A stretch of DNA of 64,000 nt. It comes from Bacteroidales bacterium. Lineage in GTDB: Bacteria > Bacteroidota > Bacteroidia > Bacteroidales > WCHB1-69. The position numbers were made by a program, and so were the translations under genes. Below the pieces are notes generated by a model, which was not told where the DNA came from, did no database searches, and worked only from the letters and a program-made list of their open reading frames with translations. Where the stretch lies: NCBI GenBank assembly GCA_017994425.1, contig JAGOKS010000002.1:3060-67059 (forward strand), given 5' to 3'. Positions 25,762 to 61,170 of the stretch are shown in pieces; the stretch's first letter is position 1, and the number at the start of each line of letters is the position of its first letter.

Positions 25762-25781
25762 AATTTTTTATTTTTGCAATT

Positions 25782-29171: not shown

Positions 29172-29176
29172 CAATA

Positions 29177-31699: not shown

Positions 31700-31702
31700 T
31701 TT

Positions 31703-32245
31703 ATGAAAATTATACCAACATCTATCTCTGATTTATTAATAATTCATCCAACGATTTATAAAGACCCTCGAGGATATTTTTTTGAATCATATAACAAACA
31801 AATCTTTGCTTCCTATGGACTTATGGCAGATTTTGTTCAAGATAACCAATCATTATCTGCTAAAAACGTTATTCGAGGATTACATTTTCAACGGCCTCCT
31901 TATGCACAAACGAAGTTAGTACGAGTTATTTCCGGTGCTGTAATGGATGTTGCCGTTGATATTAGGAAAGATTCTCCTTATTTCGGTAAATACGTAAGCG
32001 TTTTGTTAACTGCTGCTGAAAACACTATGTTTTGGATTCCTGAAGGCTTCGCTCATGGCTTTATTGCCTTAGAAAACAATACTATACTTCATTATAAAAC
32101 CTCAAATTATTACAACAACGAGTCGGAAAATGCACTTTTATGGAATGATATCAACTTAAACATTGATTGGGGAATTTCTAATCCTATTATTTCTACAAAA
32201 GATGCTTGCGCTGCTTCTTTTGAAAATTTTATAAGTCCTTTTTAA
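31703..32245 (+). CDS. rfbC: dTDP-4-dehydrorhamnose 3,5-epimerase
   Basis: 180 aa. Motifs DPRGYFFE, RGLHFQ and PEGFAHGF. Confidence 0.92.
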   Translation: MKIIPTSISDLLIIHPTIYKDPRGYFFESYNKQIFASYGLMADFVQDNQSLSAKNVIRGLHFQRPPYAQTKLVRVISGAVMDVAVDIRKDSPYFGKYVSVLLTAAENTMFWIPEGFAHGFIALENNTILHYKTSNYYNNESENALLWNDINLNIDWGISNPIISTKDACAASFENFISPF

Positions 32246-38996: not shown

Positions 38997-39003
38997 AGAT
39001 TTA

Positions 39004-39765: not shown

Positions 39766-39792
39766 GACATAAATATTTTTAAAGTTTTGCAG

Positions 39793-39800
39793 CAAAAGTA
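39793..39800 (-). promoter_or_regulatory. -7 promoter box (TACTTTTG on minus strand) for the LiaF-like/LytTR/lipoprotein operon
   Basis: The plus strand reads CAAAAGTA, 28 nt upstream of the ATG at 39765. Confidence 0.5.
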
Positions 39801-41147: not shown

Positions 41148-41153
41148 ATTATG

Positions 41154-42770: not shown

Positions 42771-42777
42771 AGAACAA

Positions 42778-44089: not shown

Positions 44090-46879
44090 TTAATGAGCTT
44101 CTAACCAATTGCTTCCTGATTTCATGTCAATTTCCAAAGGTATTGTTATCGGCATTGCATTAATCATTCCTTGATATACAATGGATTTCATTTCTTCCAA
44201 TTCAGGTTTATATACATCAAAAACCAATTCATCATGAACTTGCAATACAAAAAAAGATTTTAACTTTCTGTTTTGTATTTCATTGTAAATGTTTATCATT
44301 GCCAATTTAATCATATCCGCAGCTGAACCTTGAATGGATGCATTTATGGCATTGCGTTCGGCTACTCCTCTAATAATTGAATTATTAGAATTAATATCTC
44401 TTAAATATCTACGGCGTTTCATCAAGGTTTCAACATAGCCATATTTTTTGGCATAGCTTTTTTGGCTTTCCATAAAATTTTTTACTTTTGGATATTTTTC
44501 AAAATACTGATCAATAATTTCTGCTGCTTCTTTACGCGAGATATTTAATCGTTCTGATAAACCGAAAGCAGAAATGCCGTATATAATACCAAAATTCACT
44601 GTTTTAGCATTTCTACGCATCTCACGTGTAACTTCATTTAAAGGCACGTCAAATATTTTTGATGCCGTTGCTGCGTGTATATCTTCTCCATTGCAAAAAG
44701 ATTCAAACATGCTTTCATCTCTACTCATAGCCGCCATTAAACGTAATTCTATTTGTGAATAATCGGCTGCTAAAAGGATATAGGAATCATTTGCAGGAAT
44801 AAAAGCTTTTCTGATTTCTCTTCCTTCCTCATTTCGAATGGGAATATTTTGTAAATTCGGATTGCTGGAACTTAATCTTCCTGTTGCAGTAACTGCCTGA
44901 TTAAATGATGTATGAACACGTCCTGTTAAGGGATGGACTAAAGAAGGTAAAGCTTCCGCATAGGTTGATTTTAACTTCATTAATCCTCTATATTTCAATA
45001 TCAAGGGAATAATAGGATGTTTATGTTCTAATTTTTGCAAAACTTCTTCGCCTGTTTGATATTGTTTAGATTTTGTAAGTTTTGCATTATCGATAATTTT
45101 TAATTTTTCAAACAAAATAATTCCCAATTGTTTAGGAGAAGATACATTGAAAGATTCTCCGGAAAATTCTATTATTTTATTTTCAATCGCATTTGCTTTT
45201 ATTTGCAATTTTTTTGCATAAGAATTTAAAAATTCATTATCAATTTTCATCCCCTTTTGTTCCATACTTGCTAAAACAGGAACCAATGGCATTTCAACTT
45301 TATTGAATAAGCTTTCACCTTCTTTTTCTTTTAATTGATTTTCAAAAAGATAATAAAGTTGCAAAGTGATATCAGCATCTTCGCACGCATAATCTTTAAC
45401 TTTCTCAATAGGAACTTGGGATAAGTTATTGTTTTTCGTATCATTCCCTAGTAAACTTTCATAATTAATGGTTTGATAATTAAGATAGCTTTTCGCTAAA
45501 AAATCCAAATTATGACGCATTTCAGAATCAATGATATAATGTGCCAACATCGTATCAAAACATTGACCACTTACTTCTACCTGAAAACGTTGCAGAACTT
45601 GCATGTCGAATTTCAGATTTTGTGCTATTTTTTGTATAGATGGATTTTCAAAAGCAGGTTTTAATAATTTCATCCAATGAAGCGTTTCTTCATAAGATGC
45701 GGGCATTGCAATATAATATGCTTTAAAAGGTTCGATAGCTATCGATATACCCAATAATCTTACTTGTAATACATCTAAACTATCTGTTTCTGTATCAAAA
45801 CAAAATAATGAAAACTTTTGTAATGTAAGTGAAAATTTTTCAAGTGCTTCATAAGAATTTATCAGTAGATAATCGTGTGTAGTTGTATGGATGGATGAAA
45901 AAGCTGAAATTTCACTTTGTGCAATTTGATGTTCTTCATTATTTGAAAATAAATTCGGCAAAATATGAGAATCTGTATGTTCTTTGTTTTTTGTATAATC
46001 CATATATATCCGTTGAGCAATATTTTTAAATTCGAGTTCTTCAAAAATTTGCTTCAGTTTATTCAAATTCGGGTTTTTTATTTCCAATGCTACTTCATTA
46101 TAATCGATAGGAACATCTAATAATATTGTTGCCAACATTTTAGAAGTTAAAGCTATTTCTTTACCCTCTTCAATTTTTTGACGAAGTTTTTCATTAGTAA
46201 TTTTATTTGCATTTTTAATAAGTGATTCTATAGAACCAAATTCTGCAATTAATTTTTTGGCTGTTACTTCACCTATTCCTTTAATTCCGGGAATATTATC
46301 TGACGCATCTCCCCACAATCCAAGAATATCGATTAATTGTTCGGGGTTTTGAATGTTATATTTTTCACATATTTCTTTGGTTCCCAAAATACTAATACTA
46401 TTTCCGAGATAGGCAGGTTTATACATAAATACTTTATCGGAAACCAATTGTCCGTAATCTTTATCTGAAGTAACCATGTAGACTGTAAAACCATTATTTT
46501 CGGCTTTTTTAGCCATAGTTCCAATGATATCATCGGCTTCATACCCGGCAAGTTCTATCAAAGGAATGTTAAATCCTTCAATAATACCACGAATATAAGG
46601 TAAACTTAATACAATATCTTCAGGAGTACTTTCTCTATTTGCCTTGTATTCTGGATAATCAATTTGTCTTAAAGTAGGTCCATAGGTATCAAACGCAACA
46701 GCAATATGGGTTAGATTTACTTTTCTTATGATTTCATATAATGAATTTGTAAATCCTAAAATAGCAGAAGTGTTTAATCCTTTAGAATTTATACGCGGAT
46801 TTTTATTTAAAGCATAATAAGCCCTATAAATCAAAGCCATTGCATCTATAAGGTATAAGTTTTTTTGAGAGTGCTCCAT
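44090..46879 (-). CDS. polA: DNA polymerase I
   Basis: 5'-nuclease N-terminus LIDAMALIYRAYYA, 3'-5' exo CFDTETDSL, and pol motifs A DYSQIELR, B RRNAKTVNFGIIYG and C QVHDEL. Confidence 0.97.
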   Translation of the reverse strand: MEHSQKNLYLIDAMALIYRAYYALNKNPRINSKGLNTSAILGFTNSLYEIIRKVNLTHIAVAFDTYGPTLRQIDYPEYKANRESTPEDIVLSLPYIRGIIEGFNIPLIELAGYEADDIIGTMAKKAENNGFTVYMVTSDKDYGQLVSDKVFMYKPAYLGNSISILGTKEICEKYNIQNPEQLIDILGLWGDASDNIPGIKGIGEVTAKKLIAEFGSIESLIKNANKITNEKLRQKIEEGKEIALTSKMLATILLDVPIDYNEVALEIKNPNLNKLKQIFEELEFKNIAQRIYMDYTKNKEHTDSHILPNLFSNNEEHQIAQSEISAFSSIHTTTHDYLLINSYEALEKFSLTLQKFSLFCFDTETDSLDVLQVRLLGISIAIEPFKAYYIAMPASYEETLHWMKLLKPAFENPSIQKIAQNLKFDMQVLQRFQVEVSGQCFDTMLAHYIIDSEMRHNLDFLAKSYLNYQTINYESLLGNDTKNNNLSQVPIEKVKDYACEDADITLQLYYLFENQLKEKEGESLFNKVEMPLVPVLASMEQKGMKIDNEFLNSYAKKLQIKANAIENKIIEFSGESFNVSSPKQLGIILFEKLKIIDNAKLTKSKQYQTGEEVLQKLEHKHPIIPLILKYRGLMKLKSTYAEALPSLVHPLTGRVHTSFNQAVTATGRLSSSNPNLQNIPIRNEEGREIRKAFIPANDSYILLAADYSQIELRLMAAMSRDESMFESFCNGEDIHAATASKIFDVPLNEVTREMRRNAKTVNFGIIYGISAFGLSERLNISRKEAAEIIDQYFEKYPKVKNFMESQKSYAKKYGYVETLMKRRRYLRDINSNNSIIRGVAERNAINASIQGSAADMIKLAMINIYNEIQNRKLKSFFVLQVHDELVFDVYKPELEEMKSIVYQGMINAMPITIPLEIDMKSGSNWLEAH

Positions 46880-46905
46880 GCAATTAAAAATATATATTGA
46901 ATATA

Positions 46906-46913
46906 CAAAAGTA
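46906..46913 (-). promoter_or_regulatory. -7 promoter box (TACTTTTG on minus strand) for polA
   Basis: The plus strand reads CAAAAGTA, 27 nt upstream of the polA start. Confidence 0.55.
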
Positions 46914-47286
46914 CACGTTTTTTTTCTTAGACCTAATAAATTTAAAAACTTATATCATTAAATAATTTAAAAAAAATTTTAATTATTGATAATTTTATGT
47001 TTTTGTATTTCTGTATATTATATCGTTAATAATCGTATGTTATTACATTTATTCAATTTGTATTATAAATATTTGTATATTCGAAGCCTAATAATTAAAA
47101 CTTAAATAAAATAAAATATCATTAACTATCAGCATTTTTTATTAAATTTGATTCTTTCTGAAAATACAAAAAACATAAATCATTTCAATTATTTATCTAA
47201 AAACGTCAATAAATTAAAAAATAATCATAATTTTACATTTTCATAAAACTACTTTTAAAATTATTATAAATTAAAATATCAGAAAA

Positions 47287-47346
47287 ATGAAAAAATTTTT
47301 ACTTTTTATCAGTTTTTTTGGATTTCTCAACGCAGGACTAAAATCT
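47287..47346 (+). other. Signal peptide of the giant protein
   Basis: MKKFLLFISFFGFLNAGLKS: basic N-terminus, hydrophobic core and small residues before the predicted cleavage site. Confidence 0.7.
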
Positions 47347-50300
47347 CAAACGATAGTCGGCATTCAAAATTTTGATAGTATTATTAATTGGACAATTAGT
47401 CCAAGTGGTTCTTGGACAGCAAATACAGTATATAAGGTCAGCAATCCAAAATCTTTTCATGGTTTTGTTCCTAATCAATTAGGGGATTCTATGATGTTAA
47501 CAACCCCATTTTTTGATTGCACACAATATGCTTTTGTTTGGTTAAGTTTTACTCATATTTGTAAAATAGCAAGTAACGATATTGCTCAAATTGAAATGCA
47601 GGAAGATCTACCGGGTGCACAATGGCAAAAAATTCCGGCAAGTTGTTATTTAGGAAGTACACCAAGTGCCTATTTACAACAACGATTTAATCAAAATAGT
47701 TATGCTGATTGGCAACCGACGGATTCATTAGCAACGCCTAACAATTCATGGTGGAAAGAAGAACGTTTTGATATTTCAGCTGAGGCAGGTTGGGGCAGAG
47801 TTAGGTTTCGTTTTAAAATAAAAAGAGGAAATACCATAGGTACTCAATTTGCTTATGGATGGTTATTAGATAATTTCGAACTCCGAGGAGGCTCTCACGA
47901 GTTAGATCCTCCCACCTTAACTTTACTCGCTCCTATATATAAAGATACCGTTTATGGTGTTGGTCCTTTTGCCATTCGAGCCACAGTAGTTGATGCTGAA
48001 GATAGTTTGGTTAAATTAACATATACTATCAACAATGGTTCTCCAAATCAAGTAATTATGAATAAAGAAAATGCAACTGTGTTTTCAGCAATTATTCCGC
48101 AACAAATTTACGGCACGAACGTGTCTTATACTGTCAGAGCTGAAGATTCTGTTGGTAATTATATTACGGAATCACATTCTTTTATAAACATTAGGCATCC
48201 GAATAATCCCAATTATTTAAATGGTGCTGCAATGTATTCCGTTGATACGCCACATACAATGAAAGTTGTGGCAAACATCAGTCTTCCTGTGTACATTAAA
48301 ATTCAAAATACGGGATTAAATAACTTAACTTCGGCAACAATTTATTGGAGTGTAAACGGAGTTATGAAACCAAGCTATAATTGGTCGGGAGGTAATTTAC
48401 CGGTTGATTTTGCATCTGCTTCTTTTCATATTGGGAATTACACCCCAAGTTTAGGATATGATACTGTTGTTATTTGGGTTAAAAATCCTAATAGTGTTTA
48501 CGATAGTATTTCAAAAGATGATACTCTTTCCTTTATTACTTACGGGTGCAATACTATTTTTAACGGAAATTATACCATTAATGGTCCGAGTGGAAGTAGA
48601 AATTTTGCCAGTATTACAGCTGCATTAAATGAACTTTCTTATTGTGGAATGTCGGGTAATACTACATTTAAAATTTACAATGGGACATATAATGAGAATA
48701 TTACACTAACTTCTTCAATAGAAGGTATGGGTCAAAACGATACCATTACCTTTATCTCCTATTCGGGAATAACAGATAGTGTTATTATTGTATCAACTTC
48801 TACAGCTGTTTCACTTGGAAATATTAGAAATATCGTTTTTAAAAATATTACATTCAATGTTGTTAATGGAACACGGGGAATTAATTTCACCGGTCCATGT
48901 GAAAATATTGAAATAAATAGTTGTAAAATTAAATCCAATCCAAGCAGTACCTCTTCAGCAAATTCTTGCATTTACAAAGATTATGGAACAGGTATTTCAA
49001 ATGATATTCGTATTATTAACAATGTCTTAGATGGAGGTTATTATAATATTTATTTTTATGGAGGAACAAGCTCAACCATTCGAGCATCGAATATTATCTT
49101 CAATGGAAATACACTATCAAACGCATATTATTATGCAACCAATTTTTATTACGCTGATTTTAGTTCAATTACAAGTAATACTATTCGTTCCAGAACCACA
49201 AATCTGTCTACTTATTTTTATGGATTAAGGATGTATTATTGTGATGTGCCTAAAATTACAAAAAATAAAATCTACTATCCGGCTCCAATTACCTATGCAT
49301 ATGCAATGTACATTGGATATTGCAACAATGGGGCAAATACGAATCCGGTTATTATTTCCAACAACGAGATACGAATGAAATCTACAACAAATTCATACGG
49401 AATGTATGTTATTTCTTCAAAAATGGATATTTATCATAATTCCATACTGGCAATTGACGCTACAAATGCTACGAACATTGGTATTTTCATTTCCAGTGCT
49501 TCTTCTCTTAACGTTAAAAATAACAATTTAATTTGTACGGTTCCTATTTATTTTTCATCTATAGCATCTCTTGGAACAACTTGGTTTTTAAATTATAACA
49601 ATTATTATAGCCCATTAGCATATATAGGTTATGCCGGAGGTTTTATAACCAACATGAACACCTGGAGATCTACAACAGGTCAAGATGCAAATTCGATAAG
49701 TGTCTATCCTACTTTTATCGACACCTCTATTAATCTTAAAACCAATGGAGGAAATATAGTTTGTAATTTCCTTTCCGCTGTACCAACAGATATCAACGAA
49801 GTAAGCAGAGGATTAATAACTACAATGGGTGCCTATCATGATTTTGTACTTCAAACAAATAATGTAATGCCTTTCCGTTTATATGCCCCTTCAAATTTAA
49901 CCATAGTTGGAGGGACAGATTCTGTCGTTGTTTCAGTAGCAAATATTGGTTCCAATACGGTAACTTCCATGAAAATAAATTGGCGAGTTAATGGTATTCA
50001 AATGACACAATATTCATGGACAGGCACATTATTAGCCGGAGATACTACACTCCCCATTAAATTAGGCAACTTTATTCCATTCCCCGGAGACAATGACATC
50101 ATTGTATATACTTCACTTCCTAATAATTCCGCTGATCAAGCGCCAATAAACGATACCATTAAAACAAGCACATATGGTTGTGACTCATTAATGATTGGAA
50201 CCTATACAGTTGGAACCGGAGGACATTTTGCGACCATAGAAGATGCATTGATTCGTTTAAAATATTGCGGTATTTCCGGTCCTGTTACTTTAGCGATGTT

Positions 50301-53300
50301 CCCCGGACTTTATGTCGAAAATATAGTTTTTGAAGACACTATTAGAGGAAGTGATTCTCTTAATACTGTTACTTTTACTTCAACTACCGGGATCCGTACA
50401 GATGTTATCATATATACCGCAAGAGACTCCGCTCAAGATGTTGGAACTATTGATTTGAAAAATGTTAAACATTTAGTTTTTAAAAACATCTCTGTCTACG
50501 GTCAACATAGAAGTCCAATGTATTATTCCAAAGCCGTGATGTTGCGAAATAACGTGAGTAATATAGAATTTGATAATTGTATTTTACTGATTCCTACTTT
50601 TGTATCTGCAACCAATATTCCCGGACAACTTTCTGTTGTATATAATCCTTCTGCCAATCAAATCAATAATATTCGTATTTTAAACTGCTACATTCATGGA
50701 GGATCGGCAGGAATATATTTAATGGGGAGTGGAGATAGAATCAATATTAAAAATAATAATATTGAAAATGTGGATAATTACGGTATTTATATGTATTATA
50801 CAAATTATAATGATATATCCGACAATTATATAGAACAACGTTACAGTGCTAATTTAACGCTAATTGATTTCTATGGAATGTATTTTTATCAATCTAACGG
50901 AAATTTCATTCGAAATAACAGAATTCGTTTACACCAAACGATTTATGGTATGTATTTATACTATAGCACTAAATTAGATTATTCTCATTTACTAATTTAT
51001 AATAACGAAATTATTGCACCGGTTACAGGTAATAATTACGGTTTTTATATGTCATCCGGATGTAATGACATTAAAATATTACATAATTCCATTTTGATGA
51101 ATGGAAACGGAGAAGGTAAATGTTTTTATGTCGGAGGCACTCTTACTAACAATATCTTAAAAAACAATAATTTCATTAATTTATCTTCTGATGCTTCCAG
51201 CACAAACAATCATGTTGTCTATTTCCCTAGCACTAATGCTGCTGCCGGATTTACAATGGATTATAATAATTATTATACGATAGGTTCCTATTTAGGTTAT
51301 GCCGGTAATAATATTACTAATTTAACCCTTTGGAAAACAGCATTGGGTAAAGATGGAAATTCCATGAGCATTAATCCTACATTCTTCAATGCACAAACAT
51401 TAGACATTGTTGATTATACAGGATTAAATTGTCCTCGTATTTCAGATGTTCTTGTTGATATTGATAGTACTACTCGAACTTCAAACACTACTGTTGGAGC
51501 ATATCATGGAGACCCTTATGCCTTAGACGTTATGCCTCGTACGATTACATCTCCCGGAAAAGTATCAAGTATAGGAGCTTTAACTCCTGTTACTGTTACT
51601 GTTCTGAACGTTGGTTCTGATACAGTTACTCAAATGAGTATAAATTGGGAAGTAAACGGAATTTTACAAACTCCCTATACATGGTCAGGCTTTTTACTCC
51701 CTAATGCTGTTACATCACCCATTACACTTGGAAGTTTTTACCCTCATGCAGGATATAACTCCATTATTGTTTACACATCTATGCCTAACGGTCAATTGGA
51801 TAATCTCTTAGCAAATGATACGCTTATTTATGAAACCTATGGTTGTGATTCCGGTTTTAATGGTACTTATACGGTAGGACTAGTTGGTGCTGACTTTACT
51901 TCTATTGATGCTGCCATTGAAGCTCTTTCAAACTGTGGTGTATATGGACCGACTACTATTGCCATTCAAGCCGGTACCTATCGCGGAAATATTATTATTC
52001 CGGCTATTCCCGGTACAAATACTACCAATACGGTTACTTTTACTTCTGCTGCTCAGGATTCAACAACCGTTGTGCTTCAAGGTAATTTAGCCACGGGAGT
52101 GATTATTCTTGACAATACTAATAATATAATAATAAGCCATTTAACGCTAGAGGGCATCCTATCTGGAAGTGCTTCCCGTTGCGTAGAATTAAAAAATAAA
52201 AACAGAAATATACTTATTACAAACAATTACATGCAAACATGTAACTCTGCTTACGCTTCCCCGGCAATTATGGCTGTTTATTCATCTTATTCGCAAGATA
52301 CAAACATAACTATTCGCAATAATTATATGTATGGAACGGGTGGTATTTGGATTGAATCAGGAAATTACGCTTCTTCTGCCAGTTATAATATTAAAATAGA
52401 AAATAATATTCTGGATCAATTTTATTATTATGGTATTTATTTATATCAATCGGGTATTACAAAAGTTCATAATAATAAACTCTATAAGAGTAATGTAACT
52501 CCTCAAGGATACGGATTATATATGTATTATTGCTATGGGGTTACTGATGAAATAACTTCAATCACATCAAATACCTTCATAGGAGGTTATTCCTATATAA
52601 CCTATTTATATTATAGTTTTAGTCATTGTGGTTCCTCAAATTCTGATATTGTATTTGCAAATAATGAATTAATTCAAACTGGGACAAGTGGTAACTATTT
52701 AATGTACCAATATTACGGTGGAAAATGGCAAAACATAAACAACAGTTTTATAAATATCGGAACCGTAACCTATATGATTCTCAAATATTCATCTTCAATA
52801 GAAAGTATAAATTTTTCGAATAATATAATTGCAAATTTAGGAACTTGTACTTATCCAATCTACTGTAACAATGTTACATCTACTTATATTGGAATTGTTG
52901 ATTATAATAATTATTGGAAAGGAAGTGCCAGCGATGTAGCTTATTGGGGAAATAGTGCTTATAGTAATTTAGCAACATGGAAAACAGCTTATACAAACAT
53001 AAATTCCAATTCTGTTGCCATTAATCCTATCTTTTTAGATTCAACTTTGAATGCTGTTCCATCCGTATGGACAAATCTACATTGTCCCATTAGTTCTTAT
53101 GCATTAACTGATATCCGAGGAATAAATCGAAGTCATTCTACACACATGGGATGTTATATTCCTATTTATGATTTAGATGCCGGCTTAAAAGAGTTTGTTA
53201 GTCCTGTCGGAAATTCAACAATAAATCTAACAAATATTTCTGTCAAACTGACCAATTGGGGTTATGACACCTTGCATAGTGCAACCATCCGCTGGAAAGT

Positions 53301-56300
53301 AAATAGTACCTTTGGAACACCTATAGTTTTATCAAATTTATCTTTGCTTCAATATAAGGATACAACCATACTCTTAGGAACATACTTACCTACGCTTGGC
53401 GTTGTAACAAATTTAATTGCTTGGGTTGAAAATCCTAACGGAAGTATAGATGAAAACATGTTTAATGATACGATTACAACTTCTTCTTTGGGATGTAACC
53501 GAATTTTAAACGGAAGTTACACTGTAGGGGGTGCTTCTGCTGATTTTAGCAATATTGCACAAATATTTCAGGAATTAACCACTTGTGGTATTTCCGGAAA
53601 TGTTACTTTTAATTTCAGAAGCGGCACTTACAACGAAAACATGGTATTTTCCGGTACTATACCGGGAATGACAAGTAATGATACCATCACTTTTACATCC
53701 ATTGCCGGAAATGCCGATAGCGTTATTATTCAATCTACTGCTACCGCTTTATCATTAGGAAATGTAAATAACTTGGTTTTTAATCATTTAACTTTTAATG
53801 TTAGCAATGGAATGTATGGTGTACTATTTAATAATCCTTGCGAAAACATAGAAATTAATCATTGTCATATAAAATCTAATCCAAATGGAAGTTCCTTTGC
53901 CGGTATTTATAAAACTACTTCTGCAGGAGTAGTTAATAATATCCGTATTTTAAACAATATTATTGATGGAGGTGGATATAATATTTATTTTTACGGTGGA
54001 ACCGGAACTTCAGAGTACGCCAATAATATCCGTATTGATGGAAATACGTTGAGTAATGCATACGAATATGGCTGTTATTTGTATTATACTAATTTTAAAA
54101 GCATTTCAAATAATACTATTATAGCCCGTTCAAGTAATATTTCTTCTTCCTATTATGGTATGTATATTTATTATTGCAATGCTACTTTAATCAATGGGAA
54201 TAAAATACATGTCATGACTTCTATTCCCAATGCTTTTGGTATTCAATCTTACTATTTAAATTATTTAAATGCCTCCGGTACAGGATTAATTTCCAATAAT
54301 GAATTAATGATTAATTCTTCTACTAATAATGGACATGGCATGTATATTTATTATAGTAAAGTAAATATCTACCACAATTCTATACATATCACTTCGAATT
54401 CTGCAGCAAGAGGTATTTATGCATACACTTCTACCACTTACCCAATAGCAATACGTCAAAATAATATCGGTTCGTTTTCATCCATGGTATACCCTATGTA
54501 TTTACCATCGCTTAATGGAATTACATTGAATTACAACAATTATTACGGATCATACATAGGATATGTCAATTCCGGTATTTCTAATATGGCATTATGGAAA
54601 ATGTTTACCGGTCAGGATGTAAATTCAACTAACATTGTTCCTACTTTTGTTAACATAAATACTCATTTAAAAACAGATGGTTTTGGATTAACCTGTAATC
54701 GAAATAACAATATTCTTTATGATATTACAGGCGCATCAAGAGGAATAATCACTACTGTTGGGGCTTATAACGACTTTATCATATTACCTTATAATATTAT
54801 GCCTAAAACATTGATTTCGCCTAATTTAAGCATTTCTACCGGGGTAAGCGATTCGATTATTGTTACCATTGCCAATATGGGAGCTAATATTATTACTTCT
54901 ATGAATATCCGATGGAAAATTAATGGAGGAGTTATACAAACACTTGCATGGTCAGGGAATTTAAATGTAATGGATGTAACTTCGCCAATATTTTTAGGTA
55001 CTTTTGTGCCTCTTTCAGGTGGCAATTCTCTGATTATTTATACAGATTCTCCTAATGGACAAAACGATAATGATATGTCTAATGACACTTTAACGATTGA
55101 AACCTATGGTTGCGATTCTGCATTAAATGGAATCTACACTGTAGGTGGTGCTTCCGCTGATTTTTCTACTATTTCCGAAGCTGTCAAAGCCATGGCATAT
55201 TGCGGTATTTCCGGTCCTACGACGCTCTCAATCAATGCAAATACATATTACGAGAATGTTATTATACCAAATATTCCGGGAACAAGTACTATAAATACCC
55301 TTACTATAACATCCGCTAATGGTGATTCTACTTCCGTTATCATTCAAAGCACCTCCGATAAAGCAGCCATTACTTTGACCAATTCAAATAATATCGTTAT
55401 TAAAAATATAACTATCAATGGTATTTTATCGGGTATGGCTTCACATTCTATTGAATTGAAAAACAGCAATAAAAATATTGTTATCCGAAATAATGTTATA
55501 AAAACTTCTTCGGATACAAGTTCCACAGAATCCATTACTGCAATCTATTCAAATAATTCTTTAGATACTTCACTTAAAATCATGAATAACTATTTCCTTG
55601 GTAGTGGTGGTATCTGGATACAATCACCCGCTTTATCAAGTAGCTCTTATGATATTAGTATCTCCAATAATATTATTAATCAGTTTTATTATTATGGTAT
55701 TTATTGCTCCTATTCCAACATATATACTATTTCCAATAACAAACTTTACAAAAAATCAAATCCCGGTGGCTATGGAATTTATCTGAATTATTCTAACGGT
55801 ATCCAATCGGACATCACTCGTATTACGAACAATACTGTAATTGGAAGCTTTACTACATTGGCTTACTTGAACTATTGTTATAGTAATCATGGAACTACTA
55901 TTTCTGATATTTTAATGGCTAACAATGAATTTATAAATACCGGCAATAGTGCTTATATAGTCTATCAATATTATGGAGGAAAATGGCAAAATATTAACAA
56001 CACCTTTGTCAATACTAATACAGGAAACGTTTCTTATATGATGTATAAATACTCAACAGTTACAAATGGCATTAACTTCATTAACAATCAATTTGTTAAT
56101 TTAGGTAGTTGTAATTATTTACTGTATGTGCCTACTCCTACTTATGTTGGAATTGTTGATTATAATAATTATTATACCATTGGAACAAATTTAGTATATT
56201 GGGGAACTACTTATGCTAATTTAAGTAATTGGCAAACTGCTTATCCTGTTTTAAATATTAATTCGGTGTCAATTAATCCTGCCTTTACAACTCCTGCTTC

Positions 56301-59300
56301 CAAAGCTATTCCTTCATCATGGGTAGGATTGATTTGTCCAAGAAATACCAACGTACTTCGTGATATCCAAGGTGTTATAAGAGGACAAAGCACTTATATG
56401 GGCTGTTATGTGCCTGTATTTTCTTTTGATGCCGGACTAGAATCTTTTGTTTCACCTTCAGAAAGTTCAATAGCCGGTACTTCAGTTCCTGTTAGTGTTA
56501 AATTAAGTAATGCAGGAAGTAATGTAATCTCGTCTATTATTATAAAATGGAAAGTAAATAATAACACCATGCCTCAAGTCAATGTAAGCGGTTTATCATT
56601 AGCTCAATATCAAGACACCACTATTTTATTAGGCACCTATATCCCGATTAATAATGTAACCGCACACATTGTTGCATGGATTGAAAATCCTAATGGGCTT
56701 GGAAATGATAACAACCAAGCAAACGATACCATTGATGTTAACTCTTTAGGATGTGCCCAGGTATTAAACGGCAGTTATACTGTTGGAAGTTCAAGTGCTG
56801 ATTTCGTTACACTTAGTGATGCATTTGATGTATTAAATACTTGTGGAGTATCTGGTCCTGTTGTGTTGAATGTTCTTCCAGGAAATTATGGCGCATTGAC
56901 TATCAACCAATCTTTTGTTGGAAGTAGTCCTATCAATACGGTAACCATTACTTCATCTACCGGAATTGCTTCCGATGTAATTTTCCAATCTACTGGAGTA
57001 GCATTAACTATTGGATATACCAGTGATTTTATTTTCAAAAATCTGACTTTTGATGCAAGCAATGGGACAAGAGCTGTCCAATTTAACAATGCCTGCGAAA
57101 ATATTGAAATTAATTCCTGTATTATTAAAGCTAATCCTACTACCTCAAACACAACATATGTCGGAATTTACAAAGCTACTTCCGGTGTAGTTAATAATAT
57201 TCGTATTGTAAATAACAGTATCGATGGAGGATATTATAACATTTATTTCTACGGTGGTTCAAGCAGTACTGATTATGGAACTAATGTTATAGTTAACGGA
57301 AATATTCTTACTAACGCCTATTATTACGGAGGCTGGTTCTACTATACTGATTTTAACAGTATTTCAAACAATACAGTAAGTGCTCGTATCGTTAACACCA
57401 GCAATTATTATTATGGATTTTACTTCTACTATTGCAATGTTGCATCTTTGCAAGGAAATAAAATTAAATGTACAAATAGTAATATTCCTTATCCTTATGG
57501 TATTTATGCAAATTATTTTAATTATAATAATACCAATACTCCCGGTCTGATTGCCAATAACGAAATCATATTATCTACAACCTCGACTACTGCCGGCATT
57601 TATGTTAGCTCTAGCAGAGTAAACATCATGCATAATTCTATTTTTATAGATGGATCCGGCGGAAACAGAAATGTTTACATCAACCCAACAGAAGGTTATT
57701 CAATTGTTGTTAAAAATAATAATTTTGTTTCTACTTCCGCCTCCGGATATGGATTATATATTTCAAATACAGCCTATTTAGGGACTTACTTATTTATGGA
57801 TTATAATAATTATTATACTGCATATATAGGTTATGCTTCAGGAAATATTAATAACCTTTCAACATGGCAACTATCCACCGGTCAAGATTTACATTCTGTA
57901 ACTATTTATCCTAAATTTATAGACTATACCAAAGATTTGAAGTTAATGGATTATATTGGATTAATGTGTCCCAGAGATAGTAATGTACTTATTGATTTGG
58001 AAAATAAATCTCGCACTTCTCTTACAATTATGGGAGCATATTCGGTTGCGTTGTATGAAGATTATGATTTAAGTGCCAGCTTCTTGGTTGAACCTATCAA
58101 TATTCCTGGAGCTTGTTATCCGGATTTGACATCCATAAAAGTAGCCTTATCCAATAATGGTATTTATCCTTTCAATTTTGCTTTAACTCCTTTACAGCTT
58201 CATGTTGAAATATCAGGAACAATTACCTTACAAAAAGATACTATCATTTCGGCAGGATCATTAAATGAAATGCTGCAAGATACTTTTGAAATTGCCAGTA
58301 TGATTCCTATGAATATTAATGGGGATTATCATATTACTGTTTGGTTGAGTTGTCCGATTGACTCTATACATTCGGATGACACATTACGTTACACTTATAA
58401 AGTAAATAAAATAAACCTTCCCTTTGATATTGATTTTAGCAATATACCTTCTACCATGAATTTCAATCAAATGATAGGTTCATTAAATTGGGTTGTTGCT
58501 TCTGGCAACGAAACCAATCCACCTTTAGCGCCGGTTTACGGAACAGGAAGACTTCGTTTTGCCTCTGAATCCGGAAAAGGATCCATGGCACAAGCTATTA
58601 CAGAACCCCTTGACTTACAAGGCACCTATAGTCCAAAATTAGAGTTTTGGTATGCACACGACAATCTTGCTTCCGATGCTCGTGATCAAATGAATGTATA
58701 TATCTCTGTTGATGGTGGGCTTACTTTTACCTCTTTGATTAATGTCTTCCGATATGATTCTGCCTTTACTACTCCCGGATGGAAATATTATCAAGTCGAT
58801 TTATCATCCTATACATCTTATTCTTGTGCTATTTTCTCCTTTGAAGCACAAAGTTACGGAGGAGGTAATCAAAATATTGACCGCATACGCATATCAGCAG
58901 CTCCGGATGTTAAAATTAGTAAAATTGATATTCCCGATTTGAAAAATTGTGATTTAACCAATAAAACTATCAAAGTAATTATCGAAAATAATACTTCACA
59001 AATATTTGATTTTACTGAAAATAATACCACTCTATCTGTATTGCTTACCGGTCCGGGAGGCTTAAATCAACCTTTTACATTTGCTTTAAATAGTAAAGTC
59101 CTCAATGGTGGAGATAAAGATACAATTATATTGGGAACTAATTTTAATTTCAGCACAACCGGCACCTATGTTGTTGATGCATATTTCAATACTATAGATA
59201 GTAACCGTTTGAATGATACTTTGAAACGCAATATTATAATTTTCCCTGATGCAGCCATTACTTATATCCGTGATGTTGACCCTAAGAATATAGGCGATAC

Positions 59301-60216
59301 CGTGTATGCTAATTGCTGGGTTAAAAATGTCGGAAGTCCAACTTTAACAGAAATCCCTTTGCGCTTACAAATTAATAATACAAACGATATAGTAGAAACG
59401 GTTTATGCAACGTTAAATCCGGGTGATTCAATTTACTATACATTCAAAAAAGGATACATTGTACCAACTGCTAACATCAATCAACCGTACTATCAACTTT
59501 CTATTAAAACAGAACTTGGCTGTGATGCTGATCCTACTAATAATCGCAAATCCTTTAACGGCAAAGTAAATGTTGTAGATATTGTTTTAACCAAAATTGA
59601 AAAACCTACTGCTGATAATTGTGATACAGGGTTATACAGAGTTAATGTTTCTGTTCAATTGACCAATAACGGAGAAACCGACCAAGCAGGAGTACGAATA
59701 AATGTGAATGTTGATAGTGCCGGTATTATATTCAAGCAATTGGGAAGAACAGTAACCGTTCATGCCGGAATGACTGAATCTTTTGAGTTTTCTACAACCT
59801 ATGTAGTACCTAACATCAACGATTCTAATGAATATTATACGGTTACAGCTTACCTCAATGCTATTGAAAATGATAATACAACTGACGATGATACCTTAAG
59901 CGTCAATGCGTGTGTTGTGTATAATCCCGGATTTGGCATAACGGACAATCAACAAAATATTTGGTTTGTTGGACAAAATCAACCCAACCCGGCTACTTCT
60001 ACAAGCATTATTCCGTATAATATTCCTATTGCCGATGAGGTAACTTTAAAGATTTTGTCAATCAATGGTCAAATTCTATATCAAGAAATATTACAAGCAG
60101 TTTCGGGTAAAAACGAAATTGTAATAAATACCGATTTCCTTGCAAACGGCATTTACTATTACAGTATGGAATATCAAGGGAAAACCATTGTTAAGAAAAT
60201 GTCTGTTCAGAAATAA
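47287..60216 (+). CDS. Giant (4309 aa) secreted T9SS cargo protein with six beta-helix/CARDB-like modules
   Basis: Uninterrupted 12.9-kb ORF with an N-terminal signal peptide. Six collinear ~545-aa modules rich in NN-x-I/L rungs (PbH1-like). CARDB-like Ig segments between modules. MAM-like sandwiches near both ends. C-terminal Por/T9SS sorting domain. Confidence 0.85.
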   Translation: MKKFLLFISFFGFLNAGLKSQTIVGIQNFDSIINWTISPSGSWTANTVYKVSNPKSFHGFVPNQLGDSMMLTTPFFDCTQYAFVWLSFTHICKIASNDIAQIEMQEDLPGAQWQKIPASCYLGSTPSAYLQQRFNQNSYADWQPTDSLATPNNSWWKEERFDISAEAGWGRVRFRFKIKRGNTIGTQFAYGWLLDNFELRGGSHELDPPTLTLLAPIYKDTVYGVGPFAIRATVVDAEDSLVKLTYTINNGSPNQVIMNKENATVFSAIIPQQIYGTNVSYTVRAEDSVGNYITESHSFINIRHPNNPNYLNGAAMYSVDTPHTMKVVANISLPVYIKIQNTGLNNLTSATIYWSVNGVMKPSYNWSGGNLPVDFASASFHIGNYTPSLGYDTVVIWVKNPNSVYDSISKDDTLSFITYGCNTIFNGNYTINGPSGSRNFASITAALNELSYCGMSGNTTFKIYNGTYNENITLTSSIEGMGQNDTITFISYSGITDSVIIVSTSTAVSLGNIRNIVFKNITFNVVNGTRGINFTGPCENIEINSCKIKSNPSSTSSANSCIYKDYGTGISNDIRIINNVLDGGYYNIYFYGGTSSTIRASNIIFNGNTLSNAYYYATNFYYADFSSITSNTIRSRTTNLSTYFYGLRMYYCDVPKITKNKIYYPAPITYAYAMYIGYCNNGANTNPVIISNNEIRMKSTTNSYGMYVISSKMDIYHNSILAIDATNATNIGIFISSASSLNVKNNNLICTVPIYFSSIASLGTTWFLNYNNYYSPLAYIGYAGGFITNMNTWRSTTGQDANSISVYPTFIDTSINLKTNGGNIVCNFLSAVPTDINEVSRGLITTMGAYHDFVLQTNNVMPFRLYAPSNLTIVGGTDSVVVSVANIGSNTVTSMKINWRVNGIQMTQYSWTGTLLAGDTTLPIKLGNFIPFPGDNDIIVYTSLPNNSADQAPINDTIKTSTYGCDSLMIGTYTVGTGGHFATIEDALIRLKYCGISGPVTLAMFPGLYVENIVFEDTIRGSDSLNTVTFTSTTGIRTDVIIYTARDSAQDVGTIDLKNVKHLVFKNISVYGQHRSPMYYSKAVMLRNNVSNIEFDNCILLIPTFVSATNIPGQLSVVYNPSANQINNIRILNCYIHGGSAGIYLMGSGDRINIKNNNIENVDNYGIYMYYTNYNDISDNYIEQRYSANLTLIDFYGMYFYQSNGNFIRNNRIRLHQTIYGMYLYYSTKLDYSHLLIYNNEIIAPVTGNNYGFYMSSGCNDIKILHNSILMNGNGEGKCFYVGGTLTNNILKNNNFINLSSDASSTNNHVVYFPSTNAAAGFTMDYNNYYTIGSYLGYAGNNITNLTLWKTALGKDGNSMSINPTFFNAQTLDIVDYTGLNCPRISDVLVDIDSTTRTSNTTVGAYHGDPYALDVMPRTITSPGKVSSIGALTPVTVTVLNVGSDTVTQMSINWEVNGILQTPYTWSGFLLPNAVTSPITLGSFYPHAGYNSIIVYTSMPNGQLDNLLANDTLIYETYGCDSGFNGTYTVGLVGADFTSIDAAIEALSNCGVYGPTTIAIQAGTYRGNIIIPAIPGTNTTNTVTFTSAAQDSTTVVLQGNLATGVIILDNTNNIIISHLTLEGILSGSASRCVELKNKNRNILITNNYMQTCNSAYASPAIMAVYSSYSQDTNITIRNNYMYGTGGIWIESGNYASSASYNIKIENNILDQFYYYGIYLYQSGITKVHNNKLYKSNVTPQGYGLYMYYCYGVTDEITSITSNTFIGGYSYITYLYYSFSHCGSSNSDIVFANNELIQTGTSGNYLMYQYYGGKWQNINNSFINIGTVTYMILKYSSSIESINFSNNIIANLGTCTYPIYCNNVTSTYIGIVDYNNYWKGSASDVAYWGNSAYSNLATWKTAYTNINSNSVAINPIFLDSTLNAVPSVWTNLHCPISSYALTDIRGINRSHSTHMGCYIPIYDLDAGLKEFVSPVGNSTINLTNISVKLTNWGYDTLHSATIRWKVNSTFGTPIVLSNLSLLQYKDTTILLGTYLPTLGVVTNLIAWVENPNGSIDENMFNDTITTSSLGCNRILNGSYTVGGASADFSNIAQIFQELTTCGISGNVTFNFRSGTYNENMVFSGTIPGMTSNDTITFTSIAGNADSVIIQSTATALSLGNVNNLVFNHLTFNVSNGMYGVLFNNPCENIEINHCHIKSNPNGSSFAGIYKTTSAGVVNNIRILNNIIDGGGYNIYFYGGTGTSEYANNIRIDGNTLSNAYEYGCYLYYTNFKSISNNTIIARSSNISSSYYGMYIYYCNATLINGNKIHVMTSIPNAFGIQSYYLNYLNASGTGLISNNELMINSSTNNGHGMYIYYSKVNIYHNSIHITSNSAARGIYAYTSTTYPIAIRQNNIGSFSSMVYPMYLPSLNGITLNYNNYYGSYIGYVNSGISNMALWKMFTGQDVNSTNIVPTFVNINTHLKTDGFGLTCNRNNNILYDITGASRGIITTVGAYNDFIILPYNIMPKTLISPNLSISTGVSDSIIVTIANMGANIITSMNIRWKINGGVIQTLAWSGNLNVMDVTSPIFLGTFVPLSGGNSLIIYTDSPNGQNDNDMSNDTLTIETYGCDSALNGIYTVGGASADFSTISEAVKAMAYCGISGPTTLSINANTYYENVIIPNIPGTSTINTLTITSANGDSTSVIIQSTSDKAAITLTNSNNIVIKNITINGILSGMASHSIELKNSNKNIVIRNNVIKTSSDTSSTESITAIYSNNSLDTSLKIMNNYFLGSGGIWIQSPALSSSSYDISISNNIINQFYYYGIYCSYSNIYTISNNKLYKKSNPGGYGIYLNYSNGIQSDITRITNNTVIGSFTTLAYLNYCYSNHGTTISDILMANNEFINTGNSAYIVYQYYGGKWQNINNTFVNTNTGNVSYMMYKYSTVTNGINFINNQFVNLGSCNYLLYVPTPTYVGIVDYNNYYTIGTNLVYWGTTYANLSNWQTAYPVLNINSVSINPAFTTPASKAIPSSWVGLICPRNTNVLRDIQGVIRGQSTYMGCYVPVFSFDAGLESFVSPSESSIAGTSVPVSVKLSNAGSNVISSIIIKWKVNNNTMPQVNVSGLSLAQYQDTTILLGTYIPINNVTAHIVAWIENPNGLGNDNNQANDTIDVNSLGCAQVLNGSYTVGSSSADFVTLSDAFDVLNTCGVSGPVVLNVLPGNYGALTINQSFVGSSPINTVTITSSTGIASDVIFQSTGVALTIGYTSDFIFKNLTFDASNGTRAVQFNNACENIEINSCIIKANPTTSNTTYVGIYKATSGVVNNIRIVNNSIDGGYYNIYFYGGSSSTDYGTNVIVNGNILTNAYYYGGWFYYTDFNSISNNTVSARIVNTSNYYYGFYFYYCNVASLQGNKIKCTNSNIPYPYGIYANYFNYNNTNTPGLIANNEIILSTTSTTAGIYVSSSRVNIMHNSIFIDGSGGNRNVYINPTEGYSIVVKNNNFVSTSASGYGLYISNTAYLGTYLFMDYNNYYTAYIGYASGNINNLSTWQLSTGQDLHSVTIYPKFIDYTKDLKLMDYIGLMCPRDSNVLIDLENKSRTSLTIMGAYSVALYEDYDLSASFLVEPINIPGACYPDLTSIKVALSNNGIYPFNFALTPLQLHVEISGTITLQKDTIISAGSLNEMLQDTFEIASMIPMNINGDYHITVWLSCPIDSIHSDDTLRYTYKVNKINLPFDIDFSNIPSTMNFNQMIGSLNWVVASGNETNPPLAPVYGTGRLRFASESGKGSMAQAITEPLDLQGTYSPKLEFWYAHDNLASDARDQMNVYISVDGGLTFTSLINVFRYDSAFTTPGWKYYQVDLSSYTSYSCAIFSFEAQSYGGGNQNIDRIRISAAPDVKISKIDIPDLKNCDLTNKTIKVIIENNTSQIFDFTENNTTLSVLLTGPGGLNQPFTFALNSKVLNGGDKDTIILGTNFNFSTTGTYVVDAYFNTIDSNRLNDTLKRNIIIFPDAAITYIRDVDPKNIGDTVYANCWVKNVGSPTLTEIPLRLQINNTNDIVETVYATLNPGDSIYYTFKKGYIVPTANINQPYYQLSIKTELGCDADPTNNRKSFNGKVNVVDIVLTKIEKPTADNCDTGLYRVNVSVQLTNNGETDQAGVRINVNVDSAGIIFKQLGRTVTVHAGMTESFEFSTTYVVPNINDSNEYYTVTAYLNAIENDNTTDDDTLSVNACVVYNPGFGITDNQQNIWFVGQNQPNPATSTSIIPYNIPIADEVTLKILSINGQILYQEILQAVSGKNEIVINTDFLANGIYYYSMEYQGKTIVKKMSVQK
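47350..47880 (+). other. N-terminal MAM/ConA-like beta-sandwich (inferred)
   Basis: Ends in RVRFRFKIKRG...GWLLDNFEL. This pattern resembles MAM-type domains and the second copy at 58420-58900. Confidence 0.4.
48541..50172 (+). repeat. Module 1 (type A): beta-helix + cap + CARDB-like Ig
   Basis: Starts YGCNTIFNGNYTINGP...SYCGMSGN. Contains PCENIEINSCKIKSNP. Collinear with modules 4 and 6. Confidence 0.8.
50173..51837 (+). repeat. Module 2 (type B)
   Basis: Starts YGCDSLMIGTYTVGTG...KYCGISGP. Same architecture but a divergent helix core (NIEFDNCILL; NIRILNCYIHGG). Confidence 0.75.
51838..53487 (+). repeat. Module 3 (type C)
   Basis: Starts YGCDSGFNGTYTVG...SNCGVYGP. Contains YQYYGGKWQNINN. 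Collinear with module 5. Confidence 0.8.
53488..55104 (+). repeat. Module 4 (type A)
   Basis: Starts LGCNRILNGSYTVGGASADF...TTCGISGN. Contains PCENIEINHCHIKSNP. Confidence 0.8.
55105..56745 (+). repeat. Module 5 (type C)
   Basis: Starts YGCDSALNGIYTVGGASADF...AYCGISGP. Contains YQYYGGKWQNINN. Confidence 0.8.
56746..58440 (+). repeat. Module 6 (type A)
   Basis: Starts LGCAQVLNGSYTVGSSSADF...NTCGVSGP. Contains ACENIEINSCIIKANP. Followed by a divergent Ig-like segment. Confidence 0.75.
58420..58900 (+). other. MAM-like beta-sandwich domain (inferred)
   Basis: Contains NWVVASGNE, LEFWYAHDN, MNVYISVDGG, WKYYQVDL and IDRIRI. Confidence 0.5.
59968..60213 (+). other. T9SS (Por) type-A C-terminal sorting domain
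   Basis: VGQNQPNPATSTSIIPYNIP...VTLKILSINGQILY...NGIYYYSMEYQGKTIVKKMSVQK matches the canonical CTD pattern (NxPNP, alternating beta strands, G-YxY, terminal K-rich strand). Confidence 0.85.
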
Positions 60217-60227
60217 TATCACATACT

Positions 60228-60267
60228 ATTCTACCTGAATTCGGTAAGTTCAGGTAGAATATTTTTT
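60228..60267 (+). terminator. Intrinsic terminator of the giant gene
   Basis: Perfect 12-bp stem ATTCTACCTGAA / TTCAGGTAGAAT (60228-60239 and 60249-60260) with a 9-nt loop, followed by ATTTTTT. Confidence 0.8.
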
Positions 60268-60270
60268 ATA

Positions 60271-61170
60271 TTATTTAAATCTCAGTTTCATTGCCGAAAA
60301 AATTGTATCCGGTTTAAAATAAAAAACACTTGTCATTTCGCCGGCCATACAATACCCGCAACGTTGACAGACATTCAAACTTTCCAAAGGACAAGTATCA
60401 TATCTTGAACCATCAGGAAGGATAAAATTCGATATCCAACAATACTTTTTAAAATTATTGGTTTTCATGTATTTCAATCCCGAAATCGAATTCATAATCG
60501 GATATCCTTTTTTCTTCATGTAAATAATATCATCAATCGTTTCATTGCGTTTATTCCAATCTAAAAAAAGTTCATCATCATTCAATGAAGAAGGAGTATA
60601 AAAATTTAATGAAATGGATTTCACGGCTTTATTATCTTTTGCAAACTCAATGGTTTCTTTAACTGAAAGATAATTTTTGCTATTAATAACCATATTCACG
60701 CTTAAGTCTTTATGTTTACTTTCACTGATATGTGTGCATAAGCGATTAAAAACTCCCTTTCCGCGAATTTCATCATGATAGCTTCCCAATCCATCCAAAC
60801 TCACCCAAATAGAATCAGCTTTACAATCGCTAATGGGAAATTGTCCGTTTGTAGTTACTGTTGTCGAAAAAAAACCTATTTCTTTCGCTAATACTATCAA
60901 ATCGTTGATTCTTTTTTCTCCATCTTTCCACATCAAAGGTTCTCCCCCTTCAAAATCGACAAATCGAGATCCCAACCGATAGGAATATAATAATTCTTCC
61001 TTCACTTGATTGTACTTTTTACTGTGTGGATTCTCCAACTTATAGACCGAACAATGCTTACATCTTAAATTACATTCATCAGAAATAAACAAAACCGTTT
61101 GCAAAGGTCGTTTTCTTCCAAACAAACGAGCACGTAAAAACCAAATTCCCAAATAAAACAATTTTTTCAT
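60271..61170 (-). CDS. Radical SAM protein with C-terminal Cys cluster (SPASM/twitch-like)
   Basis: CxxxCxxC = CNLRCKHC preceded by LFGRKRPLQTVLFISDE. C-terminal cysteines in CWISNF...CPLESLNVCQRCGYC. Confidence 0.8.
   Translation of the reverse strand: MKKLFYLGIWFLRARLFGRKRPLQTVLFISDECNLRCKHCSVYKLENPHSKKYNQVKEELLYSYRLGSRFVDFEGGEPLMWKDGEKRINDLIVLAKEIGFFSTTVTTNGQFPISDCKADSIWVSLDGLGSYHDEIRGKGVFNRLCTHISESKHKDLSVNMVINSKNYLSVKETIEFAKDNKAVKSISLNFYTPSSLNDDELFLDWNKRNETIDDIIYMKKKGYPIMNSISGLKYMKTNNFKKYCWISNFILPDGSRYDTCPLESLNVCQRCGYCMAGEMTSVFYFKPDTIFSAMKLRFK

Follow-up and report, generated by a model that had tools for sequence, protein, structure and literature searches.

A giant T9SS-targeted protein assembled from six beta-helix and Ig-like modules, and its uncharacterised family

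The giant gene and the layout of its product

The window (the whole 64-kb stretch of DNA analysed here, from an uncultured Bacteroidales bacterium) carries a giant open reading frame on the forward strand (47287..60216, +), which starts with ATG and translates into 4,309 amino acids without an internal stop. At 31% GC, about 8% of random codons (about 1/13) would be stops, so that a run of 4,309 open codons is impossible by chance. Intact orthologues in other genomes, described below, settle the question: the giant ORF is real.

Upstream of the gene lies an intergenic region of 407 bp (46880..47286, +), with a GC content of 14.3%, common to the giant gene and the divergent polA. It holds putative promoter elements, namely sigma-70-like hexamers and one Bacteroidetes-type TAnnTTTG at 47143. 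At the other end, a predicted intrinsic terminator (60227..60271, +; 15-bp stem, 5-nt loop and T-run) sits between the giant gene and a convergent radical-SAM gene; its hairpin (60227-60261) reaches -18.9 kcal/mol with a z of -6.0, and the T-run lies 3' of the stem. Both flanking genes, polA and the radical-SAM gene, are on the other strand and have unrelated housekeeping functions. With its own AT-rich upstream gap, a strong terminator and such neighbours, the giant gene is monocistronic, as a preliminary description of this DNA had proposed. A conserved operon partner was rejected, the flanking genes differing between the giant locus and the loci of its orthologues. The latter adjoin unrelated genes (an SDR, an alanine symporter, ComEC, a thioredoxin-like protein), and hence there is no conserved partner gene. 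With regard to secretion, the window encodes GldF and GldG equivalogs 21 kb upstream of the giant gene, and none of the T9SS core components (PorK/L/M/N, Sov/SprA, PorU/V) is found among the ORFs of these 64 kb.

The protein opens with a typical Sec signal peptide at aa 1-21 (47287..47349, +; MKKFLLFISFFGFLNAGLKS, read from the sequence, with cleavage predicted before the following Gln), in keeping with the earlier claim. Read by eye, the segment MKKFLLFISFFGFLNAGLKSQ shows a basic n-region, a hydrophobic core and a small-residue c-region, ending in LKS ahead of the Gln. It is weakly conserved (19% among the orthologues), as is usual for signal peptides.

The beta-sandwich that follows (47350..47901, +; aa 22-205) is, on the other hand, among the best-conserved parts of the protein, with 60% of its positions invariant in four orthologues, and it has no sequence-family match at threshold. 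The model of the N-terminal region, obtained from a shallow alignment of 11 sequences, has a pLDDT of 65. Among its best fold matches are two ectodomains that contain MAM, those of RPTPmu and meprin, and the P. gingivalis PPAD Ig domain; at that pLDDT they are suggestive at best. Two Ig-like domains come next (47902..48537, +; aa 206-312 and aa 313-417). Big_7 scores 18.6 bits here, under the cutoff, and the second of the two domains is a homologue of the Ig domain found at the end of each module (hhalign probability 98.2%, with self-BLAST in agreement).

The six modules occupy aa 418-3699 and are treated in the next section. Behind them stands a jelly-roll-like domain (58384..58941, +; aa 3700-3885), 61% invariant among the orthologues. 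Residues 3762-3870 score 13.2-15.9 bits with MAM (PF00629), below the cutoff of 26.4, and the region scores 23.2 bits with choice-of-anchor J (NF038128), below the cutoff of 30; the latter match and the best MAM match cover aa 3771-3867. The two terminal sandwiches had both been labelled MAM-like. The C-terminal scores are sub-threshold and the N-terminal domain lacks a sequence match; with a model of pLDDT 65, the N-terminal label is plausible but unproven. The two sandwiches were judged not to be homologous (BLAST E 0.36; 4% probability in hhalign), and sequence searches of both end regions against the PDB gave no significant match.

About three Ig-like segments (58942..59982, +; aa 3886-4232) lead to the C-terminus; their relationship among themselves and with the module Ig domains is only weak (hhalign probabilities 17-75%). 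The chain ends in a T9SS type A sorting domain (59983..60216, +; aa 4233-4309 plus the stop codon). Its 77 residues score 35.8 bits with TIGR04183 (cutoff 23) and 29.7 bits with PF18962 (cutoff 27; 26.4 bits in the whole-protein Pfam scan). The canonical sorting domain announced in the preliminary description thus stands, both models exceeding their curated cutoffs.

Module fold and residue conservation

Self-comparison of the protein in 200-aa chunks resolved six collinear modules, which begin at aa 418, 963, 1518, 2068, 2607 and 3154 and repeat every 539-555 aa. The last five starts carry the anchor motif [YL]GC..NG.YTVG, and a variant of it is found at 418. The modules follow the order A-B-C-A-C-A. 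Type A comprises module 1 (48538..50172, +; aa 418-962; a beta-helix plus a CARDB-like Ig domain), module 4 (53488..55104, +; aa 2068-2606) and module 6 (56746..58383, +; aa 3154-3699), with mutual identities of 39-46%. Modules 3 (51838..53487, +; aa 1518-2067) and 5 (55105..56745, +; aa 2607-3153) form type C and are 50-51% identical to each other, while type B is module 2 (50173..51837, +; aa 963-1517), with 32-38% identity to every other module. The terminal Ig domain of module 6 is divergent and nearer to the C-terminal Ig segments. This array matches the six collinear modules of about 545 aa and three types described beforehand, and the rung quoted there, NIRIINNVLDGGYYNIYFYGG, is found in module 1.

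Recent module duplication or gene conversion was rejected. The intragenic DNA repeats are short (60-93% identical) and restricted to conserved motifs, which makes the modules old duplicates. Furthermore, the modules are 1:1 orthologous between species, with identities of 62-78% between orthologous modules versus at most 51% between paralogous ones; the A-B-C-A-C-A order is thus older than the divergence of the species.

An AlphaFold2 model of module 4, built on an alignment of 24 sequences, reached a mean pLDDT of 92.4 and a pTM of 0.82. It presents, in order, a one-helix N-cap, about 13 three-strand rungs, a one-helix C-cap and a seven-strand beta-sandwich. The beta-helix (module residues ~35-365) is right-handed, and the separate sandwich spans residues 437-538. 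For the helix, Foldseek against the PDB returned generic right-handed beta-helices alone, with 8-14% identity and TM scores of at most 0.49: GH136 LnbX (TMq 0.49), AlgE4, phage tailspikes, PME, Pel9A, PL6 and PfbA. All long matches (E ≤ 0.01, high probability) are right-handed beta-helices and the short ones are CARDB domains. The module tail superposes best on the archaeal PbH1 plus CARDB protein MA_4588 (2l0d, TMt 0.74, rmsd 2.7), followed by 2kl6 (0.71) and 3idu (0.65-0.69). The CARDB family PF07705 has no match at E ≤ 1 in any piece of the giant. The CARDB-like label given earlier to the Ig segments consequently holds as a fold-level match of the module tail; Pfam PF07705 is unmatched, and the C-terminal segments are weakly related. 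Taken together, the structure of this type A module is a beta-helix followed by a CARDB-like sandwich, with matches at the level of the fold alone.

At the sequence level, Pfam Beta_helix (PF13229) matches the whole protein in 5 stretches with 71.4 bits (cutoff 25.9). Scanned one by one, module 2 is the sole module over the Pfam cutoffs (Beta_helix 45.7 bits, NosD 42 bits), module 4 remains under the Beta_helix cutoff with 21.2 bits, and modules 1, 3, 5 and 6 are unmatched. Judging by these scores, the A and C modules are too divergent to pass the Beta_helix cutoff singly. The whole-protein match and the rungs of the module 4 model agree in confirming the beta-helix modules that had been proposed.

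To describe the conservation of the module, an HMM was made from 24 orthologous modules, and 789 module copies were extracted from 154 giant relatives. In the helix body, the columns conserved at 60% or more among these copies hold N, G, I, Y, L, F and T. An Asn ladder runs through it, with columns of 81-100% Asn every 23-33 residues. No helix-body column in the 789 copies from 154 proteins has 60% or more D/E, K/R or H; the partly conserved basic and His columns reach just 55% K/R and 46% His. All charged columns above 90% are outside the helix body: D417 (99%) and R423 (100%) in the C-cap, and D533 and D539 in the Ig domain. The sole charged helix-body residue common to the six modules of the window, the Glu of an NNE motif (E272), is lost in distant relatives. 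The lack of a well-conserved D, E, K or R in the helix body makes a conserved catalytic site unlikely, and this bears out the earlier statement that no catalytic signature is recognisable. One module type may nevertheless have an active site in some lineage, since the best fold neighbours are mostly carbohydrate-active enzymes.

Searches against solved structures lead in the same direction. With phmmer, the giant sequence found nothing in the PDB at E ≤ 1. The module profile found PfbA (3zpp, E 3.1e-5), one pectate lyase (E 2.5e-4) and one uncharacterised beta-helix protein; the pectate lyase match is marginal and falls outside the main helix columns. A match to a characterised enzyme family with intact catalytic residues was looked for and none was obtained.

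The composition of the modules is low in charge (D+E+K+R 8-12%) and rich in Asn (11-14%) and Tyr (7-9%). A bias from the AT-rich genome was rejected as its origin: the composition is family-wide and Lys is depleted, so that more than AT bias must lie behind the Asn and Tyr richness. An alignment of the rungs gives x-Y-G-[IMC]-Y-[LI]-Y-Y for the second strand, and Tyr is the commonest residue (47-70%) after the buried aliphatic, at the same strand position, in seven successive rungs throughout the family. Because residues of a beta-strand alternate between in and out (pattern YG-I-Y-L-Y), this Tyr ladder should point outward, into the solvent.

The C-cap provides a further link. In the family it reads D-I-D-G-x-x-R...D-I-G-A-x-E, the motif of choice-of-anchor Q (NF041518), with D, R and G conserved at 99-100%, and one relative (P0137) scores 50.1 bits with that model (cutoff 25). 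In the giant itself the C-cap is degenerate (D-I-T-G..R...T-V-G-A-Y-N), and NF041518 has no match at E ≤ 0.1.

Relatives, divergence and selection

Neither the giant nor polA had a database record when looked up as an exact sequence. The sole public copy of the locus (L001, JGI metagenome 3300045917) is broken by frameshifts, and the exact giant protein is for that reason absent from the records. When each GTDB species was scanned through one genome, orthologues of full length turned up in three Bacteroidales/Bacteroidetes MAGs: STD2_181 (4,309 aa), ADurb.Bin234 (4,308 aa) and AS23ysBPME_200 (4,311 aa), the last of which keeps the synteny with polA. The scan also returned incomplete copies, together with paralogues of reduced length (3,255 and 3,346 aa). 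A second Por_Secre_tail protein adjoins the orthologue at the locus L004.

The four orthologues are 63-73% identical and have 0-4 gap columns over 4,312. For comparison, the polA products of one pair of these genomes share 71% identity, and their alignment of 936 columns has 15 with gaps. Amino-acid divergence is thus equal in the two genes (71% identity in both), meaning that the giant diverges as slowly as a housekeeping polymerase, and its indels are about 17-fold rarer per residue. Against a partial copy that is 93% identical (L005, dS 0.37), the dN/dS is 0.087; against the other orthologues, where dS is saturated, it is 0.08-0.11. The giant gene is under strong purifying selection. Its polA-like conservation and near-zero indel rate are the only surprising features of the giant, which in other respects is an ordinary representative of a widespread class of unstudied proteins.

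A search with the module profile over 1.84 billion cluster representatives matched 26,971 proteins at E ≤ 1e-3 and 8,191 representatives at E ≤ 1e-30. The best 150 matches are all giants themselves (2,187-7,814 aa), with 4-20 matched stretches each. Full modules number 2-13 per chain in the 154 family giants, and the module length has a median of 540 aa (5-95% range 525-571). A T9SS-type tail is present in 99 of the 154; some relatives have an alternative C-terminal tail, which has no Pfam match. The full layout of the giant, with the N-terminal sandwich, 4-6 modules, the jelly-roll and the sorting domain, was found in 26 further representatives.

The named relatives come from Bacteroidales, Marinilabiliales, Cytophagales and Bacteroidia MAGs, and all are called either 'hypothetical protein' or 'T9SS type A sorting domain-containing protein'. 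No paper on this family was found in the literature. The module family of the giant is very large and common in metagenomes, yet uncharacterised.

Possible functions of the giant protein

The core reading, a monocistronic gene for a giant Sec/T9SS protein with six beta-helix plus Ig modules, is supported. As to function, we lean, with modest assurance, towards a non-catalytic adhesive surface fibre exported by the T9SS. In such a mechanism, the ~470-kDa chain would be exported by Sec and then carried, folded, across the outer membrane by the T9SS translocon. A PorU-type sortase would remove the sorting domain, and the new C-terminus would be attached to anionic LPS, or the protein released. 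The family tails (99/154), the GldF and GldG genes in the window and the sorting-domain protein beside the L004 orthologue are all consistent with this T9SS link. If extended, the chain would form a beaded rod of about 90 nm, with the conserved N-terminal sandwich as its proposed distal tip; the estimate takes 13 rungs of 0.48 nm plus caps per helix and about 4 nm per Ig domain. The near-uncharged helix faces, made of Tyr, Asn, Ser and Thr, and the tip domain would bind ligands rather than cleave them, the proposed ligands being insoluble or polymeric, such as polysaccharide particles, other cells or matrix. Conservation at the level of polA is unusual for a typical exposed adhesin, an observation that we count against the adhesive fibre.

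Known proteins offer several points of comparison. Long right-handed beta-helices of non-enzymatic function are found in the type V adhesins pertactin, Ag43, FHA and HMW1, which mediate adhesion and auto-aggregation and are functional analogues. Unlike the giant, they consist of one continuous helix and are exported through a T5SS beta-barrel, and they have no detectable sequence relationship to it. PfbA of Streptococcus pneumoniae is a beta-helix adhesin with a carbohydrate-like cleft and without evident catalytic machinery (PMC3718772). Like the giant modules, it is a surface-anchored right-handed parallel beta-helix with C-terminal anchoring, and among solved structures it comes closest to the module profile in sequence, at marginal similarity, besides being a Foldseek neighbour; we count this profile match in favour of an adhesive fibre. 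In contrast to the giant, PfbA has a single 12-rung helix in a ~700-aa, LPXTG-anchored substrate of a Gram-positive sortase; it binds fibronectin and plasminogen, and it has neither the Ig/CARDB tail nor the tandem array nor the T9SS signal. Gut methanogens have adhesin-like proteins that, as the giant does, carry several right-handed beta-helix domains per chain; a protein of M. smithii reaches seven (PMC11532034). These archaeal proteins differ from the giant in their anchoring and in their uneven helix lengths, and they lack a fixed 540-aa unit of helix plus Ig as well as a T9SS domain.

Among the alternatives, a structural coat or spacer, which we regard as unlikely but take seriously, survives best. 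Here the giant would build an ordered or brush-like layer, such as an S-layer-like sheath or one that protects or excludes by size, and the exact length of the chain would be important; T9SS-exported S-layer proteins do exist in Tannerella (TfsA/TfsB). The near-invariant length of 4,308-4,311 aa in four species, the scarcity of indels at a divergence equal to that of polA, the narrow range of module length across the family and the dN/dS of about 0.09 all fit such a role. However, members of the subfamily that shares the end domains have 4 to 6 modules, and those of the family at large 2 to 13, which argues against a universal ruler. There is also no indication of lattice contacts, and few indels would be tolerated under any function by a beta-helix that is compact and has short turns.

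A glycan-degrading or glycan-modifying array, with each helix acting as a lyase, hydrolase or epimerase, is less probable still and in our view quite improbable. The model would be the AlgE C-5 epimerases (2pyh), the second-best fold match, which repeat whole beta-helix A-modules between small beta-roll modules. In its favour, most Foldseek neighbours (LnbX, AlgE4, Pel9A, PL6, tailspike depolymerases) are carbohydrate-active, module 2 passes both the Beta_helix and the NosD cutoffs, and the names of the MAGs appear to point to an anaerobic-digester habitat. But the A-modules are enzymes with a defined catalytic motif, YG(F/I)DPH(D/E); this motif is absent from the giant, whose YG-x-Y strands have no D-P-H, and the identity is 11%. 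The enzyme structures as a group are at most 14% identical, with TM scores not exceeding 0.49, and the only PDB enzyme reached by sequence is the marginal pectate lyase. The 789 helix bodies hold no well-conserved D, E, K or R, in modules with 8-12% charged residues.

Finally, a gliding-motility adhesin of the SprB/RemA type, moved over the cell surface by the gliding machinery, is very improbable: SprB and RemA of Flavobacterium johnsoniae are multi-thousand-residue T9SS-exported surface filaments, as is proposed for the giant, whose size and predicted length resemble those of SprB and whose gene has GldF and GldG equivalogs 21 kb upstream, but such mobile adhesins have a type B sorting domain and a cognate PorP/SprF-like partner (SprF for SprB, which is built of SprB repeats), whereas the giant has a type A domain, beta-helix modules without an SprB repeat match in the Pfam scan and no conserved partner beside it or its orthologues, and GldF and GldG are found in non-gliding Bacteroidota too.

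Returning to the adhesive fibre, precedents already exist for surface proteins with several beta-helices, for giant adhesins exported by the T9SS and for beta-helix adhesins that use other secretion systems. A bolder reading, which we think rather unlikely in its full extent, is that the 540-aa unit defines a distinct and undescribed class of Bacteroidota fibres. Its thousands of members would be non-catalytic platforms with uncharged, Tyr-laddered helix faces that bind insoluble polysaccharide or associate laterally with one another, and the fibre would be a length-calibrated spacer or an ordered coat, near-essential in the digester lineage. Such a class would cover chains of 2-13 modules and up to 7,800 aa, with length selected like that of a housekeeping enzyme.

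Giant T9SS cargo fills much of the coding capacity of uncultured Bacteroidota, and nearly all of it is annotated as 'hypothetical'. For this family there is now a defined unit, consisting of a helix, a choice-of-anchor-Q-type cap and a CARDB-like sandwich with a median of 540 aa, together with an architecture conserved from end to end and a case for the absence of catalysis in the family. Attachment to particles and the formation of flocs in anaerobic digesters would be processes to which the family is relevant, if its Tyr-ladder faces do bind insoluble polysaccharide or bring about aggregation.

Other genes of the window

Besides the 4,309-residue, T9SS-targeted surface giant (47287-60216, forward strand), the window holds a second giant ORF of 2,564 residues (13849-21543, forward strand). 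This protein, with a Glycoamylase, a GH94 supersandwich and a GH94 catalytic domain, resembles synthases or phosphorylases of cyclic beta-1,2-glucan and is not related to the surface giant finding. On the reverse strand, GldG and GldF of the gliding-motility-associated ABC transporter (24007-26513) were both recognized as equivalogs, at 565.6 bits (cutoff 389.9) and 316 bits (cutoff 288.5), respectively, while the 362-residue ORF downstream of them (22909-23997) matched no family.

Exopolysaccharide genes are scattered over 28407-32245 (forward) and 39981-44076 (reverse), and encode a Wza-like Poly_export/SLBB protein, a Wzz/tyrosine-kinase-like protein, RmlC, a GT4 glycosyltransferase, a sulfatase-fold protein and a flippase-like Polysacc_synt protein. 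A LiaF-like membrane protein adjoining a LytTR DNA-binding protein (38202-39795, reverse strand) may form with it a cell-envelope stress module. Among housekeeping genes lies an ORF6N-domain protein (3028-3702, forward strand), listed with a 44-bp overlap at the 3' end of guaA; this domain is typical of phage antirepressor-like proteins.

Copies, paralogues and divergence

Public copies of the surface giant gene are broken artefactually, by frameshifts. JGI metagenome 3300045917 (contig Ga0496409_0000636) contains this locus from what is essentially the same organism; there the gene is called as four pieces of 600, 2,023, 545 and at least 756 residues, with polA, the divergent upstream gene, and further genes likewise fragmented.

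Further relatives were seen at loci L006 (878-10645, forward strand, in the same MAG as the orthologue at L002), L008 and L009 (9800-19840). Genomes of the clade carry extra paralogues, among them a 3,255-residue protein and a separate protein that has only the N-terminal domain in common (43% identity). In a more distant Bacteroidetes MAG, a 3,346-residue relative adjoins TPR and WG-repeat proteins.

Between the window and the orthologue locus L004, the surface giant and polA (44090-46879) are equal in amino-acid divergence, at 71% identity, with 4 gap columns in 4,312 for the former and 15 in 936 for the latter. Such stasis is unusual for an exposed protein.

Module cysteines and an alternative tail

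Three cysteines, at module positions 3, 33 and 403, are invariant in all six modules of the window protein (48538-58383), within the motifs YGC..., ...CG.SG... and ...GL.CP.... They are not conserved across the wider family, and may make up a disulfide or metal site peculiar to the clade, at the C-cap and the junction between Ig domain and helix.

Among the 154 giant proteins with homologous modules, 31 do not have the T9SS C-terminal sorting domain (including P0041, P0045, P0048, P0053, P0054, P0061, P0063 and P0064) and share instead a different tail over the C-terminal ~60 residues, preceded by a PPC-like and an IPT-like piece. This tail, with the consensus ...GAP.....L..l.l...E..GP.g.LRPGA.Gs.tvY... 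and no match in Pfam, may act as another kind of signal for sorting or anchoring.
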